This document shows, piece after piece, positions 1,298 through 52,034 of a stretch of DNA of 64,000 nucleotides (its first letter is position 1; each line of letters begins with the position of its first letter). The notes below the pieces were generated by a model, which saw only the letters and a list, made by a program, of their open reading frames with translations, searched no databases and was not told the origin of the DNA. The stretch comes from Candidatus Nomurabacteria bacterium (GTDB lineage Bacteria > Patescibacteriota > Minisyncoccia > Phycocordibacterales > SBAW01). Location of the stretch: contig CALRFF010000002.1 in the NCBI GenBank assembly GCA_943356495.1, positions 99,826 to 163,825 of the forward strand, read 5' to 3'. Made by a program: the position numbers and the translations under genes.

Positions 1298-2530
1298 ATG
1301 GCTGCTGATAAAAGTATCTTCTCTAAAGAAGCCTTAAAAAAGGCATGGAGGCGTATTTATCGCTCCAAATCAAAACGTAAAAGGAATACTTCTCGTGGTA
1401 TTGACGGGATTACAATTCAACAATTTAAGGACAACGAGGCAGAGTATATAGATACACTCTGGAAAGACTTACAAACAGATTCATTTCGTTTCCAAAAACT
1501 CTACGCCTATCAGCAGAAAAAGCCGGGCAAGAAAAAGCCTCGGTTGATTCAAGCCCCTACAGTAAGAGATCGTGTCGTGTTGTCGGTAATAAATAATTAT
1601 TTAGGACAACGACAGCCTGCCGACTCTTTCCGAGATTTAGGAATAGTCGGTTCAGTGAAAGGTACAACCCCTCGGCGTATTGTACGAGAGGTGCTTTCTT
1701 ACGAGAGTGAGGGATTTATCGCAGTCTTTAAAACTGACATAAAAGATTACTTTCCGTCGGTGGATATACCACGACTCAAACGGATGATGAACTCTCTTCT
1801 AAAGGAAGAGGTCTATTTACGCAAACTTATATTCGACTTTTTAAACATAAATAAAGAGAGAGGGCTTGCCCAAGGGTCGGCTATTTCTCCTCTGTTGGCG
1901 AATATTTACCTACGTGCGTTTGATAAAAAACTAGCCAACCGCAAAGACATCAAGCACTTACGATATGTGGATGACATCATCGTTTTTGCAAAAGAGAAAC
2001 GAAAAGCAAAGGAGGTATATAAACCTATAAAAGTGCAACTGTGGGGTAGAGGTCTCTCTATTCATTCTTTGTCGAGCAGGTCTAAGACGCAAACAGGCAT
2101 GCTCCGTTCTGGTGTCATTGATGTACTCGGCGTACGTTTTACGAAGCAAGGACTAAAAATAAAACAGAGTAAAGTTGATGGTTTTCGTAAAGAGGTAATC
2201 GGTAAGTTAAAGCCAGCAGTAATTCTTAAAGATGGAGACAAGAGTGTGCCTCAAAATCTTCGAGAGTATATTGAAAAACTCAATCATCGTATTAGAGGAT
2301 GGGGTAGTGCGTATGCCCTGTGCGACGAAGAAGAACTCTATACCCAATTGGATACGGAGATCCACGGTCGGCTAAATGCGCTTTTAGATTCCCTTTCAAC
2401 ACCTAGAGGAAAAGGTAGGCCAAGACTATTTCTGGATTCCTCTAAAAGGAAAAAGTTGTTGTTTTCGGTTGCTAAGTTAGAAAGCATCCGTATAAAAGTC
2501 CGCAGTAGCGCCCGATGGATGAGGAAATAG
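1298..2530 (+). CDS. reverse transcriptase, group-II-intron-like / retron-like (not DGR type), with thumb/X-like motif
   Basis: RT motif 0 is RGIDGITIQQF. Motif 2 is PTVRDRVV. Motif 4 is AQGSAISPLLANIYL (QGxxxSP). Motif 5 is RYVDDIIVFA (YxDD). The C-terminal RIRGWGSAY resembles the maturase domain-X RGWxxYY motif. No intron domain V/VI is seen downstream and there is no room upstream for domains I-III. Confidence 0.85.
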   Translation: MAADKSIFSKEALKKAWRRIYRSKSKRKRNTSRGIDGITIQQFKDNEAEYIDTLWKDLQTDSFRFQKLYAYQQKKPGKKKPRLIQAPTVRDRVVLSVINNYLGQRQPADSFRDLGIVGSVKGTTPRRIVREVLSYESEGFIAVFKTDIKDYFPSVDIPRLKRMMNSLLKEEVYLRKLIFDFLNINKERGLAQGSAISPLLANIYLRAFDKKLANRKDIKHLRYVDDIIVFAKEKRKAKEVYKPIKVQLWGRGLSIHSLSSRSKTQTGMLRSGVIDVLGVRFTKQGLKIKQSKVDGFRKEVIGKLKPAVILKDGDKSVPQNLREYIEKLNHRIRGWGSAYALCDEEELYTQLDTEIHGRLNALLDSLSTPRGKGRPRLFLDSSKRKKLLFSVAKLESIRIKVRSSARWMRK

Positions 2531-28812: not shown

Positions 28813-29496
28813 TTGATGATGTCGATGCAACCCGCATTGAACACGTCGCCGGTCGTGACCGCCGATAGCCCCAAGGGGCTGCGTGCGCTCGAGACCTTCC
28901 GCGCCCAATACAACAAGGCCCAGCTCGACGACGAGGGTGCCCAACTGCTCAATGAGCACAAGGACTTCGCCGCTTACTTAGCCGAGGGCATTCGCAAGTT
29001 CTCGACCAAAGGGTCGGTGTTCCCGGTTTATCTCGAGATCGAGACGGGCAGCAAGTCGAGGGACGAGCTGCTGAAGGAACTGAAGGCGGCCGAGGTCGAG
29101 GTCTCCAAGTACGCCAAGGACATCATGTCCAAGGACGCTTGGAAGCCTGGCGAGAAGCAGGTCGTCAAATTCGCGCGGGTCAAGGTGAGCGAACTCGGGT
29201 TCACCAACCCGAACAAGCTTCCAACGACTCGCGAGATCTGGGCACGCATCCAGGAACTCGGGCACAGCCTCTGCGAGCCGGCTGACGGCCCGGCCATCCG
29301 GCTGAGTCTCAAGGACCAGCCGCGCGGCGACTACTTCTGGACTGCGATGGAACAGATTTCGGACTCCGGCGGCAGCCCGAGCGTGTTCTTCGTCAAGCGG
29401 TACGACGGCGGCAAGCGCTGGCTCCACGACTTTTGGGTCCGCCCCGACGACCGGTGGTTTCTCGTCGTCGAGTTCGTGTTCCGTCTCCGCAAGTAA
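28813..29496 (+). CDS. DGR target (variable) protein, C-terminal CLec-fold-like variable region
   Basis: Its last 132 nt (the VR) match the downstream TR with adenine-specific substitutions. The TR-encoded ancestral C-terminus ...NDNWVNPDNQWNLDNEIVFRLR follows the Asn-rich, GFRxxR-like ending typical of C-type-lectin-fold DGR targets. Confidence 0.85.
   Translation: MMMSMQPALNTSPVVTADSPKGLRALETFRAQYNKAQLDDEGAQLLNEHKDFAAYLAEGIRKFSTKGSVFPVYLEIETGSKSRDELLKELKAAEVEVSKYAKDIMSKDAWKPGEKQVVKFARVKVSELGFTNPNKLPTTREIWARIQELGHSLCEPADGPAIRLSLKDQPRGDYFWTAMEQISDSGGSPSVFFVKRYDGGKRWLHDFWVRPDDRWFLVVEFVFRLRK
29360..29491 (+). repeat. DGR variable repeat (VR)
   Basis: 132-nt ungapped alignment to the TR with 19 mismatches, all opposite TR adenines. 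The 3' 21 nt are identical (IMH-like). Confidence 0.9.
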
Positions 29497-29543
29497 CACT
29501 CAAGTTTTAGGGTTTAGCCCTAACTCTTGGTCCTTAGCCCTTC

Positions 29544-29579
29544 GGCCCGCATCGCAAGATGCGGGCCGCTTTCTTTTTT
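29544..29579 (+). terminator. GC hairpin with GCAA loop plus T-tract downstream of the VR (terminator / DGR-associated stem-loop)
   Basis: ggcccgcatc-GCAA-gatgcgggcc followed by gctttcttttttg. Confidence 0.6.
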
Positions 29580-29813
29580 GTATACTAAGGAGCGGTAGTA
29601 GGCGAGTATGCGTGCGGCAAGGACTGCGCGCTGCCCAATCCAGCAGACTTGCGCTGAGAATTTTTTCAACTGCGGTTGAGAAAAGAGTGGTTCAAGCGAG
29701 CTTAAAAAATAGAAGATACTTGGTGCGAGGCGCTACGGCATTGCGATGCCAAATACGATACAGGTTCTTGAATAATCGAGAGCCGGTGGCACGGGCGGCG
29801 CCCCGCACATAAA

Positions 29814-29945
29814 CGGACTCCGACGGCAACCCGAACGTGTTCTACGTCAAGCGGAACGACGACGGCAAGCGCTGGCTCAACGACAATTGGGTCAACCCCG
29901 ACAACCAGTGGAATCTCGACAACGAGATCGTGTTCCGTCTCCGCA
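29814..29945 (+). repeat. DGR template repeat (TR)
   Basis: Noncoding copy of the VR. It contains the AAC/AAT codons (in target frame) at every position that differs in the VR. Confidence 0.9.
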
Positions 29946-29952
29946 GCTCTCT

Positions 29953-30351
29953 TTATTTCTCCCCTGCCTTGGTAGGGGAGTTTTGTTTTGCGAGCTGACC
30001 GCTCCAACCATTGAGCATCTTTCCTATCTCGTCGAGTGGTTGAGCTAGCGCTAAGTAGCGTTTGTCGCGCAGAGATTTTGTCTCCCAAAGAATCAGGAGT
30101 AAAAAGTTGAGCGTGTTGAGCTTTTGCAGAGCCAACAGTACTACGGGACTCTTTTTATCCTTGGGGGCATAGACCGCCGAGGTTATACGTTCGATAAGGT
30201 CAATAAACAAGATGTCTACTCTTTCGCCTAGCGTGTAGCGATGGGCCTTTGGCAGCGTAAGATAGTACTCATGCCACAACAAATAAGCCTGTTTGACCCG
30301 CTCCAAAATAGGCAAAAGCCGTTGGGGGGGGGCTCGTAAAAGAGGACTCAC
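29953..30351 (-). CDS. avd: Avd-like DGR accessory variability determinant (four-helix-bundle family), encoded antisense to TR/RT
   Basis: ILERVKQAYLLWHEYYLTLPKAHRYTLGERVDILFIDLIERITSA aligns with Bordetella bAvd (IVERYERVISYLYPIAQSIPRKHGVAREMFLKCLLGQVELFIVAG). Length is about 130 aa with a basic C-terminus. The start codon is uncertain (the ORF track used GTG). Confidence 0.7.
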   Translation of the reverse strand: MSPLLRAPPQRLLPILERVKQAYLLWHEYYLTLPKAHRYTLGERVDILFIDLIERITSAVYAPKDKKSPVVLLALQKLNTLNFLLLILWETKSLRDKRYLALAQPLDEIGKMLNGWSGQLAKQNSPTKAGEK

Positions 30352-31315
30352 TCATACATATGACGATATCATTTCTGTCGAGAACCTGCTCGCGGCATGG
30401 AAGGAGTTTCGGCGTGGTAAGCGGTCCAAGCTAGACGTGCTGGAGTTTCAAACTGACTTGATGTATCAAATCACCGCTTTGCACGATGAATTAAAGAACA
30501 AAACGTACAAGCACGGCGGCTACCACCACTTTCGCATCAGTGACCCAAAACCCCGCGACATACACAAGGCGAGTGTACGCGACCGGCTGCTTCATCACGC
30601 CATATATAGAAAGCTGTACCCGTTCTTCGACAAAAAGTTCATTGCCGACTCTTACTCCTGCCGCCTGGGGAAGGGGACGCATAAGGCGATGAGTCAGTTC
30701 CGCCGATATGCCGGCAAAGTATCCCGCAACCATACCCGCACGTGCTGGGTCCTGAAGTGCGACATCCGCAAGTTCTTTGCCTCGATCGACCACCGGGTGT
30801 TGTTCTCCATCCTCGAGCGCTCCATACCCGACTCGGATATCCGCTGGCTCTTGCAGGAGGTGGTCGGCAGCTTCCGTGCGAGGCTAAACCTCGCACAAGG
30901 GTTGCCGCTCGGGAATCTCACAAGCCAACTCTTGGTCAACGTGTACATGAACGAGTTTGACCAATACACGAAGCACACGCTCAAAGCCAAGCACTTCATT
31001 CGCTATGCGGATGATTTTGTGCTGCTTTCGCACAACAAAACAGAGCTAGAAAAAAGACTACGATATATCGTAGTCTTTCTATGGGACAAATTAAAGCTGA
31101 AATTGCATCCCAACAAAGTATCCATCAGCACCTTTGCCTCCGGCGTCGACTTTTTAGGCTGGGTGCACTTTACCGACCACCGTGTGTTGCGTACTGCGAG
31201 CAAAAAGAGGATGCAGCGACGGCTACGAGAGCAAGCAGGGAATGAAAGTACCCGTCAATCATATATCGGGATGTTGAAGCATGGGAATACCGAGAAGTTG
31301 CGGCAAAAAATCTGA
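30293..31315 (+). CDS. DGR reverse transcriptase
   Basis: N-terminus ISVENLLAAWKEFRRGKRSK matches the bRT-like WENLWAAYRKAARGKR. SYSCRLGKGTHKA is the DGR-specific motif. LPLGNLTSQLLVNVYM has the I/LGxxxSQ signature in place of QGxxxSP. RYADDFVLL is the YADD motif. Length is about 330 aa. The true start is probably downstream of the TTG chosen by the ORF track. Confidence 0.9.
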   Translation: MTRSKIGKSRWGGARKRGLTHTYDDIISVENLLAAWKEFRRGKRSKLDVLEFQTDLMYQITALHDELKNKTYKHGGYHHFRISDPKPRDIHKASVRDRLLHHAIYRKLYPFFDKKFIADSYSCRLGKGTHKAMSQFRRYAGKVSRNHTRTCWVLKCDIRKFFASIDHRVLFSILERSIPDSDIRWLLQEVVGSFRARLNLAQGLPLGNLTSQLLVNVYMNEFDQYTKHTLKAKHFIRYADDFVLLSHNKTELEKRLRYIVVFLWDKLKLKLHPNKVSISTFASGVDFLGWVHFTDHRVLRTASKKRMQRRLREQAGNESTRQSYIGMLKHGNTEKLRQKI

Positions 31316-50025: not shown

Positions 50026-50901
50026 ATGAAAAAGTTTGCACACGTAGTGGCAGTTGCGGGTGTAGTGTTGGTGGCGCTGGTTGCTACACCGGCGCTTGCC
50101 GCGCCCACCGCCGAGCTGCACATTACCGCCGAGGGCAAGTTGAGCGCGAAAAACATTGTTGTACTGCAAAAGTCGGGGACTACGCTGTTTTGCCGCGCGC
50201 TGTGGGGCAATGCGTTTGTCCGGTTGACGGTACTGACCACGCCCGACACGGTGTCGGCGGTTATTGTGCGTAACCACGGCGGTATTGCCACGATTGATGA
50301 AATACAAGACGGCGACCTTATCTCGGTCGAAGGTTCTTTGGTGCCGGCGGCCGACTCGCTGCAAATTAACGCCAAGCGCATAGTCGACTACTCGCTTAAC
50401 AAAGAGCCGAAGACGCTTGCGGGTACGATACAAAGCGTCGGGGGCGGCACCTTTGTGCTTACCAACAAGCTTTTTAACAACACGACCGTGGTGGTCGGTA
50501 CCTCAACCCTTACCAAAGGTGTGCGTACCATTACCATTGCCGAGCTTGTGGTTAAAGACAAAGTGCTTTCCGCCAAAGGCTTGTACGACTACACCACCAA
50601 CACGCTTACGGCATCCTCTATCGAAATCTTTCAGGACAAGGCGGTGTTTAAACAGCGGGCCTTCGAAGGCACTATCCGCGCCATATCCGCTACAACGCTC
50701 CCCGCAACCGTAACCATCGCTACCGCCGGTGCAGACTATATGGTGTATTTGCCTGCGGGGACCAAAGTGCTCAACAAACTCCGCGCCCCCGCCGACCTGT
50801 CGCGCTTTGCGCCGGGCGACAAGGTAGCGATCCTCGGCTCTATCCGCCAAACCAATCTGGCCGAGGTAGACGCGGTCTCCATCCGCAACCTCAACTTCTA
50901 G
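50026..50901 (+). CDS. hypothetical secreted protein (291 aa)
   Basis: Signal peptide (VAVAGVVLVALVATPALAAP) followed by a beta-rich sequence. Confidence 0.45.
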   Translation: MKKFAHVVAVAGVVLVALVATPALAAPTAELHITAEGKLSAKNIVVLQKSGTTLFCRALWGNAFVRLTVLTTPDTVSAVIVRNHGGIATIDEIQDGDLISVEGSLVPAADSLQINAKRIVDYSLNKEPKTLAGTIQSVGGGTFVLTNKLFNNTTVVVGTSTLTKGVRTITIAELVVKDKVLSAKGLYDYTTNTLTASSIEIFQDKAVFKQRAFEGTIRAISATTLPATVTIATAGADYMVYLPAGTKVLNKLRAPADLSRFAPGDKVAILGSIRQTNLAEVDAVSIRNLNF

Positions 50902-50949
50902 CTGTAGCTCTAGCCGACAGTAAGTCTGTGTATAAATAGCTTGCATATA

Positions 50950-50975
50950 AAAGACTACGATATATCGTAGTCTTT
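50950..50975. repeat. 26-bp perfect palindrome aaagactacgatatatcgtagtcttt (copy 1, abutting the start codon of the TrpR/YerC-like gene)
   Basis: Self-complementary sequence. Identical copies at 51388-51413 and 31053-31078. Confidence 0.9.
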
Positions 50976-51386
50976 ATGCCGCATGTATCCAGACATACTC
51001 CGATTAAAAAGGTTTCAGATAAAACATTCGGTTTGTTTATGGAATGTGTTACCGGCAAGTGGTCGAAAGATGAGCGTAGAGCATTTTTTGATAATCTCCT
51101 GACCCCTACCGAAAGAGTTATGTTTTCAAAAAGATTGGCAATAATATACATGCTTGCCAAAGGCCACTCATTTGATGCCATTCAAGAAACATTACGAGTA
51201 AGCCCCTCCACAGTTGCACGTCTGTGGAGTGCAATCCAAAAAGGTAAATATACTGAAGTCACTCGGCACCTGCAAAAACAATTAGAGCGCGATACTGATT
51301 TTGAACACTGGTTTTCGCTACTGATGCCCCCGATGCATATGAGCAAAAAGCAATATGCTGAACGTATGCGTCGTCTCAATCTATAA
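50976..51386 (+). CDS. TrpR/YerC/YecD-like DNA-binding protein
   Basis: LLTPTERVMFSKRLAIIYMLAKGHSFDAIQETLRVSPSTVARL matches the YerC/YecD Trp-repressor-like family pattern (LLTP.E......R......L..G.S...I......S..T..R). Confidence 0.6.
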   Translation: MPHVSRHTPIKKVSDKTFGLFMECVTGKWSKDERRAFFDNLLTPTERVMFSKRLAIIYMLAKGHSFDAIQETLRVSPSTVARLWSAIQKGKYTEVTRHLQKQLERDTDFEHWFSLLMPPMHMSKKQYAERMRRLNL

Positions 51387-51414
51387 AAGACTACGATATA
51401 TCGTAGTCTTTTAT
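51383..51414. repeat. 32-bp perfect palindrome ataaaagactacgatatatcgtagtcttttat (copy 2, overlapping the stop codon of the TrpR/YerC-like gene)
   Basis: Self-complementary. Its outer flank tatgcaag is the inverse of the flank cttgcata at copy 1. Confidence 0.9.
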
Positions 51415-51428
51415 GCAAGTGATGTTTT

Positions 51429-52034
51429 TTGTTGGTTTATAATTTAGACATGAATGCTTCAGGGGTTTTGGAGCGGGTTTGGCTGTGGGTTAAGTGGCCG
51501 GTCATTGTACTGGCGGTGGGCTTTGTTGCTTTTGCTATATGGGGCACGATGCTCGCGCTCGACAAAGACAAGACCGATGCCGCTGTGGCGCAGATACATG
51601 CGCAAAAGCTTACCCTTGCCGATGTAGTGGGCGCTAACCTACCATCGGTCCCCGACCAAGCAGAGAACGACGCCACTGTTGCGGGGATAGATACAAACAA
51701 CAACGGTATCCGCGACGATGTCGAGTTGGCTATTTTTGCAAAATACCCTACCTCCGCCAAAATCCGCGCGGCAGCACTACAGTATGCGATGGCGGAGCAA
51801 ATGTATTTAACTAAAGTTTTTAATACAGGTACATGGAAAGCTGTGGCGGAAGAAGTCGGACGAGCACACACTTGCGTTATAAATGCGGGCGCAAACAGAA
51901 AAGAAGTTGAAGTCTTGGTATCAAATACACAGTTAAGAAAAGAAACAAGGACTAAAGCCTTTGAATTTATTACTAGCCACGGTGACGCTCGGGGTGAGCC
52001 ATGCGATGTAGCTTTAAATACATTACCCAATTAG
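51429..52034 (+). CDS. hypothetical membrane-anchored protein (201 aa)
   Basis: N-terminal TM (WPVIVLAVGFVAFAIWGTMLAL). Confidence 0.4.
   Translation: MLVYNLDMNASGVLERVWLWVKWPVIVLAVGFVAFAIWGTMLALDKDKTDAAVAQIHAQKLTLADVVGANLPSVPDQAENDATVAGIDTNNNGIRDDVELAIFAKYPTSAKIRAAALQYAMAEQMYLTKVFNTGTWKAVAEEVGRAHTCVINAGANRKEVEVLVSNTQLRKETRTKAFEFITSHGDARGEPCDVALNTLPN

Follow-up and report, generated by a model that had tools for sequence, protein, structure and literature searches.

The closest described systems to the one reported here are those of TrpR and HisR, the operators of which are 20-bp palindromes. Characterized members of this family bind 20-bp palindromes that are specific for their lineage, and autoregulation is common among them. 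The tryptophan-contacting residues of TrpR are not conserved even in HisR (PMC9413887). For the present study we analyzed a stretch of 64,000 nucleotides from Candidatus Nomurabacteria (contig CALRFF010000002.1, positions 99,826 to 163,825), which is called the window in the following. It carries a gene for a TrpR-fold helix-turn-helix protein of 136 aa (50976..51386, + strand), which is bracketed by perfect palindromes at its start and stop codons. Judging from the comparison with homologous loci, this protein is probably a dimeric DNA-binding protein of the TrpR fold, which has the palindrome as its cognate site and regulates its own gene.

In comparison with E. coli TrpR and the trpR operator, the locus shares the fold, a symmetric site of about 20 bp that is predicted to be read by a dimer, and an operator that appears to lie over the promoter of the regulator's own gene. 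In addition, one variant of the palindrome (L091, TGTAC...GTACA) has the same outer half-site as the TrpR motif of E. coli. The protein differs from E. coli TrpR by its length (136 instead of 108 aa), by an MPH(V/I)S arm at the N-terminus and by a C-terminal helical extension of about 45 aa. Furthermore, the palindrome is perfect over 26-32 nt, has a TATATA center and is found on both sides of the gene. There is no sign of a regulon for tryptophan biosynthesis, and the remaining sites are located within open reading frames (ORFs). HisR (YerC/YecD) of the Firmicutes is similar in that an own site is located upstream of about half of the hisR genes (PMC9413887), and the top structural matches of the 136-aa protein are YerC-like. 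However, the HisR motif is cacTTTAnnnnnnTAAAgtg, and no his genes are located near the TrpR-like gene. For HisR, neither a two-sided bracket nor intragenic sites have been described. The design itself, an autoregulated TrpR-family repressor, is familiar. New are the two-sided bracket, a family with an invariant core of the site throughout the Candidate Phyla Radiation (CPR, Patescibacteria) and, most notably, a co-varying putative operator embedded in reverse transcriptase (RT) genes.

To our knowledge, CPR bacteria possess very few transcription factors, none of which has been characterized experimentally. Diversity-generating retroelements (DGRs) are exceptionally common in CPR, and we know of no work on the regulation of their activity by the host.

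Structure of the palindromes in the window

The upstream palindrome AAAGACTACGATATATCGTAGTCTTT (50950-50975) is perfect over 26 nt, and its last base, 50975, abuts the ATG at 50976. The downstream palindrome ATAAAAGACTACGATATATCGTAGTCTTTTAT (51383-51414) is perfect over 32 nt and contains the TAA stop codon (51384-51386). We propose the upstream copy as a candidate operator O1, which would overlap the promoter/5'UTR, and the downstream copy as a candidate operator O2 and/or an insulating hairpin. The two regions share a direct repeat of 30 nt, TATAAAAGACTACGATATATCGTAGTCTTT, with two identical copies at 50946-50975 and 51382-51411. A third exact copy of the 26-mer is located at 31053-31078, within an RT ORF. 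None of the three palindromes is assigned to a strand. Since 3 matches to the 26-mer were found in the window compared to 0 expected from 100 shuffles, chance is ruled out as an explanation of the repeat.

The first-pass annotation of this DNA had described palindromes of 26 and 32 bp at the start and stop of a 136-aa Trp-repressor-like gene. These coordinates were confirmed, and the gene product matches the corresponding Pfam family. The palindromes had also been regarded as the frame of the unit. The bracket is real, but the conserved unit runs further left to a TGTG(G/T)ATAA box, and the third copy at 31053-31078 had been missed. As had been noticed before, the two sequences on the outside, cttgcata (50940-50947) and tatgcaag (51412-51419), are exact reverse complements of each other. 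However, they are 2 nt off the register of the palindrome centers, and this inverted symmetry was not found in the homologous cassettes of other genomes.

Conservation of the bracket in the gene family

The bracket is present in all 11 orthologs and paralogs examined, which range from 100% down to 26% identity. In each of them, a palindrome is found 0-40 nt from the start codon, and the stop codon is followed by another one after 0-100 nt. In close homologs (60-72% identical) the order is TGTG(G/T)ATAA box, 14-nt spacer, palindrome, gene and second palindrome. Their upstream palindrome abuts the start codon, GTCTT(T)ATGCCGCA (Met-Pro-His), and the second palindrome is found 0-3 nt from the stop codon.

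Among the more distant orthologs, P0034 (52% identity) carries CACTACGATATATCGTAGTG, P0046 (39% identity) GTGATACGATATATCGTATCAC, P0044 (~37-39% identity) TAGTACGATATATCGTACTA, P0063 (~29-38% identity) TACTACGATATAT(C/T)(G/A)TAGTA and P0066 (26% identity) TGTACGATATATCGTACA, in each case upstream and downstream of the gene. One copy on each side was found for P0042 (~36-40% identity), with AGTGATACG...CGTATCACT upstream and CCGATACG...CGTATCGG downstream, and for P0054 (~37-39% identity), with TACAACGATATATCGTTGTA upstream and an imperfect palindrome downstream. The ortholog P0060 (~30-36% identity) has 2 upstream and 3 downstream copies of TCATACGATATATCGTATGA, and a homolog from Saccharibacteria (L007, 40% identity) has 5 upstream and 2 downstream copies of AACTACGATATATCGTAGTT. 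The upstream copies of the latter (L007, 1-800) include two tandem 64-nt units, each with a second small hairpin, and resemble an iteron array. In the 20-kb loci L083, L085 and L091, the bracketing copies of the palindrome are the only ones present.

Two paralogs located on one contig (L078) each have their own type of palindrome, GACTACGATATATCGTAGTC and TACTATGATATATCATAGTA, respectively. Their recognition helices also differ (SPSTVAR and GHDTIHR). The GHDTIHR paralog is 28% identical, more canonical YerC-like, and bracketed by ACTATGATATATCATAGT (variant ATGATATATCAT). The MPHVS-type paralog has the GAC type upstream, and its downstream copy was seen on L013, which is the same contig.

Locus L016 contains a gene-less copy (60-170), which consists of the TGTGGATAA box, one palindrome and the downstream flank. 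It is located 740 bp upstream of a full cassette (800-1330) and looks like the result of a duplication followed by a deletion between the two direct-repeat palindromes.

Conservation and covariation of the palindrome

Over 77 unique sites, the 14-bp center TACGATATATCGTA (ACGATATATCGT; arms TACGATA|TATCGTA, positions 1-7) is essentially invariant. Arm positions 8-10 show 3-4 pair types each and vary by lineage, but symmetrically: the two arms are complementary at these positions in 76/77, 77/77 and 69/77 sites. The symmetry covers about 13 nt per arm and drops to chance level by position 15. At some sites it is extended in a site-specific manner. The palindromes of L001, L004 and L028 reach 8-10 nt further, and the two copies of L098 differ at positions 10-11, with each copy still being self-symmetric.

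The 20-mer GACTACGATATATCGTAGTC was found in 82 exact public loci, 14 of them from genomes and 68 from metagenomes, mostly of groundwater. All of the 14 genome loci belong to Patescibacteria/CPR (Saccharibacteria, Adlerbacteria, Nomurabacteria and unclassified members), as do all named loci among the 82. The exact 20-mer gave no match in viral contigs. Each metagenome-assembled genome carries 3-6 exact copies. The 63 unique sites of the GAC type are distributed over DGR-type RT genes (19 sites), the flanks of TrpR-like homologs (15) and other locations (29). AAA...TTT flanks are present on 46 of these 63 sites, and the conserved unit is therefore a 26-mer. The site is more conserved than the protein, since homologs are only 60-72% identical and yet the 20-mer is exact in 82 loci. 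The literature library that was searched contains no paper with the sequence of the palindrome and none that ties CPR DGRs to a palindrome or to a TrpR-like factor.

The TrpR-like protein and its family

The 136-aa protein matches the Pfam family PF01371 (Trp_repressor) over residues 20-91 with 42.6 bits (cut-off 27; E = 6.4e-11). It misses the cut-offs of the NCBIfam models TIGR01321 (TrpR equivalog; 22.4 vs 67.25 bits) and TIGR02531 (YerC/YecD, i.e., HisR; 27.1 vs 42.2 bits), and all of its matches to transposase helix-turn-helix models are below the cut-off. The AlphaFold2 model (predicted local distance difference test, pLDDT, of 82) is all-helical and consists of eight helices, in line with the TrpR fold, in which helices D and E make up the helix-turn-helix. 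In a Foldseek search of the PDB the top 30 matches are all TrpR- or YerC-like chains, with probabilities of 0.99-1.0 and target-normalized template modeling (TM) scores of 0.63-0.78. The best of them are the YerC-like "putative Trp repressors" 3kor, 3frw and 3g1c and E. coli TrpR (probability 1.0, TM 0.72-0.78).

The N-terminus MPH(V/I)S(K/R) is near-invariant in alignment A1 and in distant orthologs, and it is kept despite synonymous codon variation. The subfamily has the motif SPSTV in the recognition helix. Neither the MPH(V/I)S motif nor the C-terminal extension is present in YerC (alignment A1). A profile search revealed 1709 representative clusters (E<=1e-10, 50% identity), and the named members are all CPR. 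The subfamily is apparently widespread in and specific to Patescibacteria/CPR. By these data, a large CPR family of TrpR-fold proteins (~1700 clusters at 50% identity) is now paired with a probable recognition sequence.

The upstream region

A box with the consensus TGTG(G/T)ATAA is located ahead of the upstream palindrome. In the window it is TGTGTATAA (50927-50935, + strand), which corresponds to a DnaA box with one mismatch. In 9 close cassettes TGTGGATAA or TGTGTATAA is found at a constant distance of 14 nt ahead of the A-tract of the palindrome, and in the P0034 ortholog (L083) the spacing is 19 nt instead. The loci showing the conserved box are the window, L013, L014, L016, L017, L036, L055, L062, L074 and L083. 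TGTGGATAA and the consensus DnaA box TTATCCACA are exactly complementary, and at several loci the box is located just 3' of the GC-rich terminator of the preceding gene. As the box is conserved to the left of the palindrome, the palindromes are not the outer ends of the conserved unit. With up to one mismatch, the box motif occurs 27 times in the window compared to 8 expected occurrences (~3-fold). A function of TGTGGATAA as general promoter element or as DnaA-box cluster was rejected, because these copies are mostly intragenic and show no fixed distance to gene starts. Ahead of the TrpR-like gene, the box is possibly a -35 region or the site of another regulator.

A scan of 50700-51700 for the sigma-70 consensus revealed no full promoter on the + strand. 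A candidate -10 element, TATAAA (50946-50951, + strand), extends into the A-tract on the left side of the upstream palindrome. At the equivalent place of L091, 4 nt ahead of the palindrome, a perfect TATAAT is found.

On the other side of the gene, a lone perfect TATAAT (51438-51443) is found 23 nt downstream of the downstream palindrome and 6 nt before the ATG of the next gene (51450). This distance suggests that the mRNA of the next gene is leaderless. The downstream palindrome occupies the expected -35 position of this gene.

Genomic context of the TrpR-like gene

In 10 loci the gene is located between the gene of an RNA recognition motif (RRM) protein, which has the same orientation, and the convergent gene of RNase J. 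For P0034 the order is rpoBC, TrpR-like gene and convergent RNase J gene. In the window (L10 at 54237), in P0046 (Giovannonibacteria) and in P0042, the gene is closely followed by rplJ-rplL. Its GC content is 3-13 points below that of the surrounding genome in all 12 lineages tested. Therefore, the GC dip in the window is a trait of the family and not a sign of recent transfer. No recombinase, integrase or transposase was called within 10 kb, and the helix-turn-helix gene is the only ORF of the unit. As judged from this synteny, it is a vertically inherited CPR gene, and the unit is not a mobile cassette.

In the Adlerbacteria metagenome-assembled genome T7_bin-136 (L009, 884-1603), the slot between the genes of RNase J and the RRM protein is occupied by a MutY/Nth-like gene, in which a palindrome is read in frame (EKTTIYRSL). 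This is the slot of the TrpR-like gene in other genomes. In T7_bin-136 itself, a TrpR-like gene accompanied by the exact site was not detected.

A copy inside the reverse transcriptase gene of a DGR

The third copy of the palindrome (31053-31078) is located in frame within a DGR RT gene (30293..31315, + strand, 340 aa; Pfam RVT_1, 9.8e-26). It is read as KRLRYIVVF, 13 codons past the YADD motif. The template repeat (TR) of this element is located at 29814-29945 (+ strand, 132 nt, family D1). The target gene (28813..29496) carries the variable repeat (VR, 29360-29491) at its 3' end. TR and VR are 86% identical over 132 nt, and 19 of the 19 mismatches are at TR adenines. A bAvd-like accessory ORF (29953..30351, - strand) is located between TR and RT; its match to Pfam bAvd (9.1e-9, 36.2 bits) is below the cut-off of 40. 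The region 28813-31315 is a complete and genuine DGR. It is located directly upstream of rpsF-ssb, and the order of RT followed by S6 recurs in L003 and L005.

In public data, 19 additional unique RT genes of other CPR genomes carry the site at identical codon positions. RT homologs show no length change at this position, where the family consensus is xLRYIxxFL. KRLRYIVVF occurs in 14 of the 119 scorable best RT homologs, and many others are one residue away. The predicted relation between peptide and palindrome type was tested by fetching two RT genes and was confirmed: TLRYIVVF corresponds to the CAC type AAACACTACGATATATCGTAGTGTTT and ILRYIVVF to the TAC type AAATACTACGATATATCGTAGTATTT, both of which are perfect 26-nt palindromes. 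In these variants the change in the left arm is nonsynonymous (R, T or I), while the matching change in the right arm is synonymous (GTC, GTG or GTA). Among 18 unique RT sequences of the GAC type, identity at flanking third codon positions is 62%, compared to a conservation of 94-100% for the AAA and TTT that directly border the search pattern. In all three genomes in which both were seen, the RT gene has the same palindrome type as the flanks of the TrpR-like gene; these are the window, H43-bin025_1 (L012 with L013) and ERP119705_co17_126 (L003 with L014).

We tentatively consider that a TrpR-fold regulator of the host controls DGRs via an operator that evolved within the RT coding sequence. 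The targeted hypermutation of surface proteins might then be gated by a physiological signal, e.g., the supply of amino acids by the host cell, and the sites in rnhB, murD, miaA and other ORFs might form a small roadblock regulon. This effect of the protein on the DGR is read from the shared site and is, in our view, possible but doubtful. If it is true, such a conserved and co-varying site of a host factor within the RT gene would offer the first concrete approach to the regulation of DGRs by the host.

A classification of the stand-alone sites as parts of DGR loci was rejected, as an RT gene is located nearby in only 1 of 40 cases.

Other intragenic and stand-alone copies

In-frame copies were also identified in genes for RNase HII (rnhB), MurD, MiaA, MutY/Nth-like, ATE-like and glycosyltransferase proteins. 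Depending on the frame, the intragenic palindrome is read as KRLRYIVVF or KTTIYRSL. A comparison of RNase HII and MurD with their PDB homologs revealed no insertion at the segment encoded by the palindrome, and close relatives of RNase HII have KRLAFIVVF or KRLQYIVVF of equal length at this position. An origin of the ORF copies as in-frame insertions, in the style of the Rickettsia palindromic elements, was rejected because the alignments of RT, RNase HII and MurD contain no indels. Since the homologs show no change in length, the ORF sites were built by point changes at peptide motifs that were already similar. They are a natural example of a signal at the DNA level which is selected in coding sequence at "pre-adapted" peptide motifs.

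Most of the stand-alone intergenic copies either follow the 3' end of a gene at a distance of 3-50 nt or are found between genes that converge. The only stand-alone site that is clearly promoter-proximal is that of L044 (155-174), an exact 20-mer without the A/T flanks on a GC-rich contig, 6 nt before the ATG of a gene for a protein that is PadR-like by eye. In L011 (3819-3836) the variant ACTACGATATATCGTAGT is located at the junction of gatC and gatA and directly adjoins the ATG of gatA, with the same geometry as at the regulator's gene. An RT gene with the exact palindrome is found about 600 nt away from this site.

Proposed mechanism

The upstream palindrome would separate the ATG from the only promoter elements that are plausible. 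It is located within the approximately 60 nt from the terminator of the preceding gene to the ATG. The bound protein may thus shut off its own transcription, as is typical of TrpR and HisR. The downstream copy could serve as a second operator, which would allow cooperative binding or the formation of a ~436-bp loop. Alternatively, it could be a roadblock or hairpin and thereby shield the small gene from its neighbors. This arrangement resembles O1 and O2 of the lac operon, which are 401 bp apart with O2 inside lacZ, in that two (near-)identical operators, one at the promoter and one downstream, would be about 400 bp apart. However, looping needs a tetramer, which would have to form here as well, and the spacing simply equals the length of the gene. 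The same protein is expected to bind the identical site at 31053-31078, where it would act as an intragenic roadblock, as at the other sites within ORFs and at 3' ends. With a roadblock in the RT gene, the output of the hypermutation element would depend on the signal sensed by the regulator.

DNA binding, repression and a ligand are predictions from sequence and structure comparison. Recognition of a palindromic operator of about 20 bp by a dimer is suggested by the bracket in 11/11 homologs, by the lineage- and paralog-specific variants and by the symmetry profile. The bracket and these variants favor the interpretation as an autoregulatory operator pair, which had been among the initial proposals for this locus.

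Several observations weigh against this interpretation. With the exception of those at the gene of the regulator itself, the sites are mostly intragenic or located just past 3' ends and not at promoters. The palindromes are perfect over 26-40 nt, and thus longer and more exact than usual operators. The symmetry beyond the 20 bp needed for binding indicates an added hairpin constraint or a templated correction of quasi-palindromes. Because the upstream region contains no consensus promoter, the overlap of operator and promoter is a prediction from position. The identity of the two flanking copies could be kept by gene conversion rather than by the protein, and the downstream copy of the window resembles an inverted copy of the upstream copy plus its flank. 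Finally, residue 81 in the recognition helix had been predicted from 7 orthologs to set positions 8-9 of the palindrome, and this prediction was falsified by P0044, P0042 and P0054.

Alternative explanations

The palindromes might act mainly as nucleic-acid hairpins, i.e., as bidirectional terminators or insulators built of an A-tract, a stem and a T-tract, which would shield the small gene from the adjacent operons. In this case the protein is not involved, and the identity of the copies is due to gene conversion and quasi-palindrome correction. RNA folding revealed stable structures for the upstream (-17 kcal/mol, z -5.7) and the downstream palindrome (-19 kcal/mol, z -6.1), with a third figure of -15.1 kcal/mol (z -5.0). 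The AAA...TTT flanks on 46 of 63 GAC-type sites, the position of most stand-alone copies past 3' ends or between convergent genes and the site-specific symmetry beyond a 20-bp footprint (L001, L004, L028, L098) are in agreement with such a function. However, a scan of 50700-51700 for the terminator consensus gave no hit, as the T-run in the tails TTTATGCC and TTTTATGC is too short for the U-run criterion (>=5 of 8). In Rfam 15 no family was found, the sole match being at chance level (14.3 bits vs a gathering score of 167). An invariant 14-bp sequence across phylum-level lineages is not required for a terminator stem, the genes upstream of several cassettes have their own GC-rich terminator before the TGTGGATAA box, and a terminator within the rnhB, murD, miaA or RT ORFs would be harmful. 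Hairpins also do not explain why every family member has a site, in the 20-kb loci only in its vicinity, nor the paralog-specific types on one contig. We therefore regard a pure hairpin function as unlikely. The terminator or attenuator pair proposed in the first-pass annotation finds some agreement in the stable hairpins and the positions at 3' ends, which are compatible with a second role, but not in the terminator scan or the invariant core. Somewhat less probable still is that the protein binds the palindrome for chromosome organization, pausing or marking, like parS/ParB, matS/MatP, NBS/Noc or Ter/Tus-RTP, with autoregulation as a by-product. The parS site in spo0J, TerB at tus and Ter at rtp are likewise short conserved sites, few per genome, often in unrelated ORFs and with one copy at or in the autoregulated gene of the binding protein. 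The small number of 3-6 exact sites per metagenome-assembled genome, their location in unrelated housekeeping ORFs in either open frame and in no case as an insertion, the exceptional conservation of the sequence, as with parS, the syntenic core gene beside rplJ/rpoBC and the motif identical to a DnaA box at a fixed upstream spacing would fit such a function. On the other hand, the bracketing copies are the only ones within 20 kb in most lineages examined, and the bias towards DGR RT genes (19/63 unique sites) is left unexplained. Protein families and sequences differ from those of the parS and Ter systems, and neither a ParB-like nor another enzymatic domain is present in the protein. In addition, Ter sites are asymmetric, and a perfect palindrome cannot give a polarity of the Ter type.

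It was further considered whether the unit is or was a mobile cassette of the gene and one palindrome, which duplicates a pre-existing palindromic site similar to integrons, Xer/dif or REPtrons, with the solitary copies as empty sites. The identical copies at the gene, the mutually inverted outer flanks in the window, the low GC content of the gene, the gene-less copy 740 bp from the full cassette in L016 and the solitary copies scattered through the genomes could be taken as traces of mobility. REPtrons (RAYT with REP) also comprise a gene flanked by dispersed palindromes, and the Rickettsia palindromic elements are translated in frame. However, the protein encoded here is a helix-turn-helix protein and not a Y1 HUH transposase, the copies per genome are few, and the ORF copies arose in situ at equal length, without indels, at pre-adapted beta-strand motifs. 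The bracket is as old as the family (11/11, down to 26% identity), the low GC content is family-wide (12/12 lineages), neither a recombinase nor a transposase is found within 10 kb, and the conserved unit extends past the palindrome to the TGTGGATAA box. The lack of viral-contig matches to the exact 20-mer also speaks against mobility, and L016 is equally explained by duplication and subsequent deletion between direct repeats. Synteny is kept across deep lineages while the flanks diverge. A tiny mobile cassette in an ancestral palindrome, as had been suggested in the first-pass annotation, is refuted by this finding, as conservation of the gene in place with diverged flanks is what that annotation itself had named as evidence against mobility. 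We consider a mobile cassette highly improbable. A dif/Xer-like 11-6-11 site, a DNA-uptake sequence and a telomere-resolvase site were weighed and set aside, because the copy number, the ORF locations and the missing enzymes do not fit. Autoregulation by the TrpR-fold protein through the palindrome remains the interpretation that we prefer.

Further observations

In locus L090, which is from the same organism as the window, the contig stops 26 nt past the stop codon, within the downstream palindrome, and in sister assemblies the breaks are inside the two genes that follow. Assemblies are probably fragmented at this point because of the repeated palindromes.

A second, distant RT-like ORF is located at 1298..2530 of the window and is 26% identical to the DGR RT (tblastn). 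Near this ORF, two pairs of inverted repeats are located around ORFs, at 2797-2921/4351-4475 (125 nt, 93% complementarity) and at 4448-4551/5663-5766 (104 nt, 100%).

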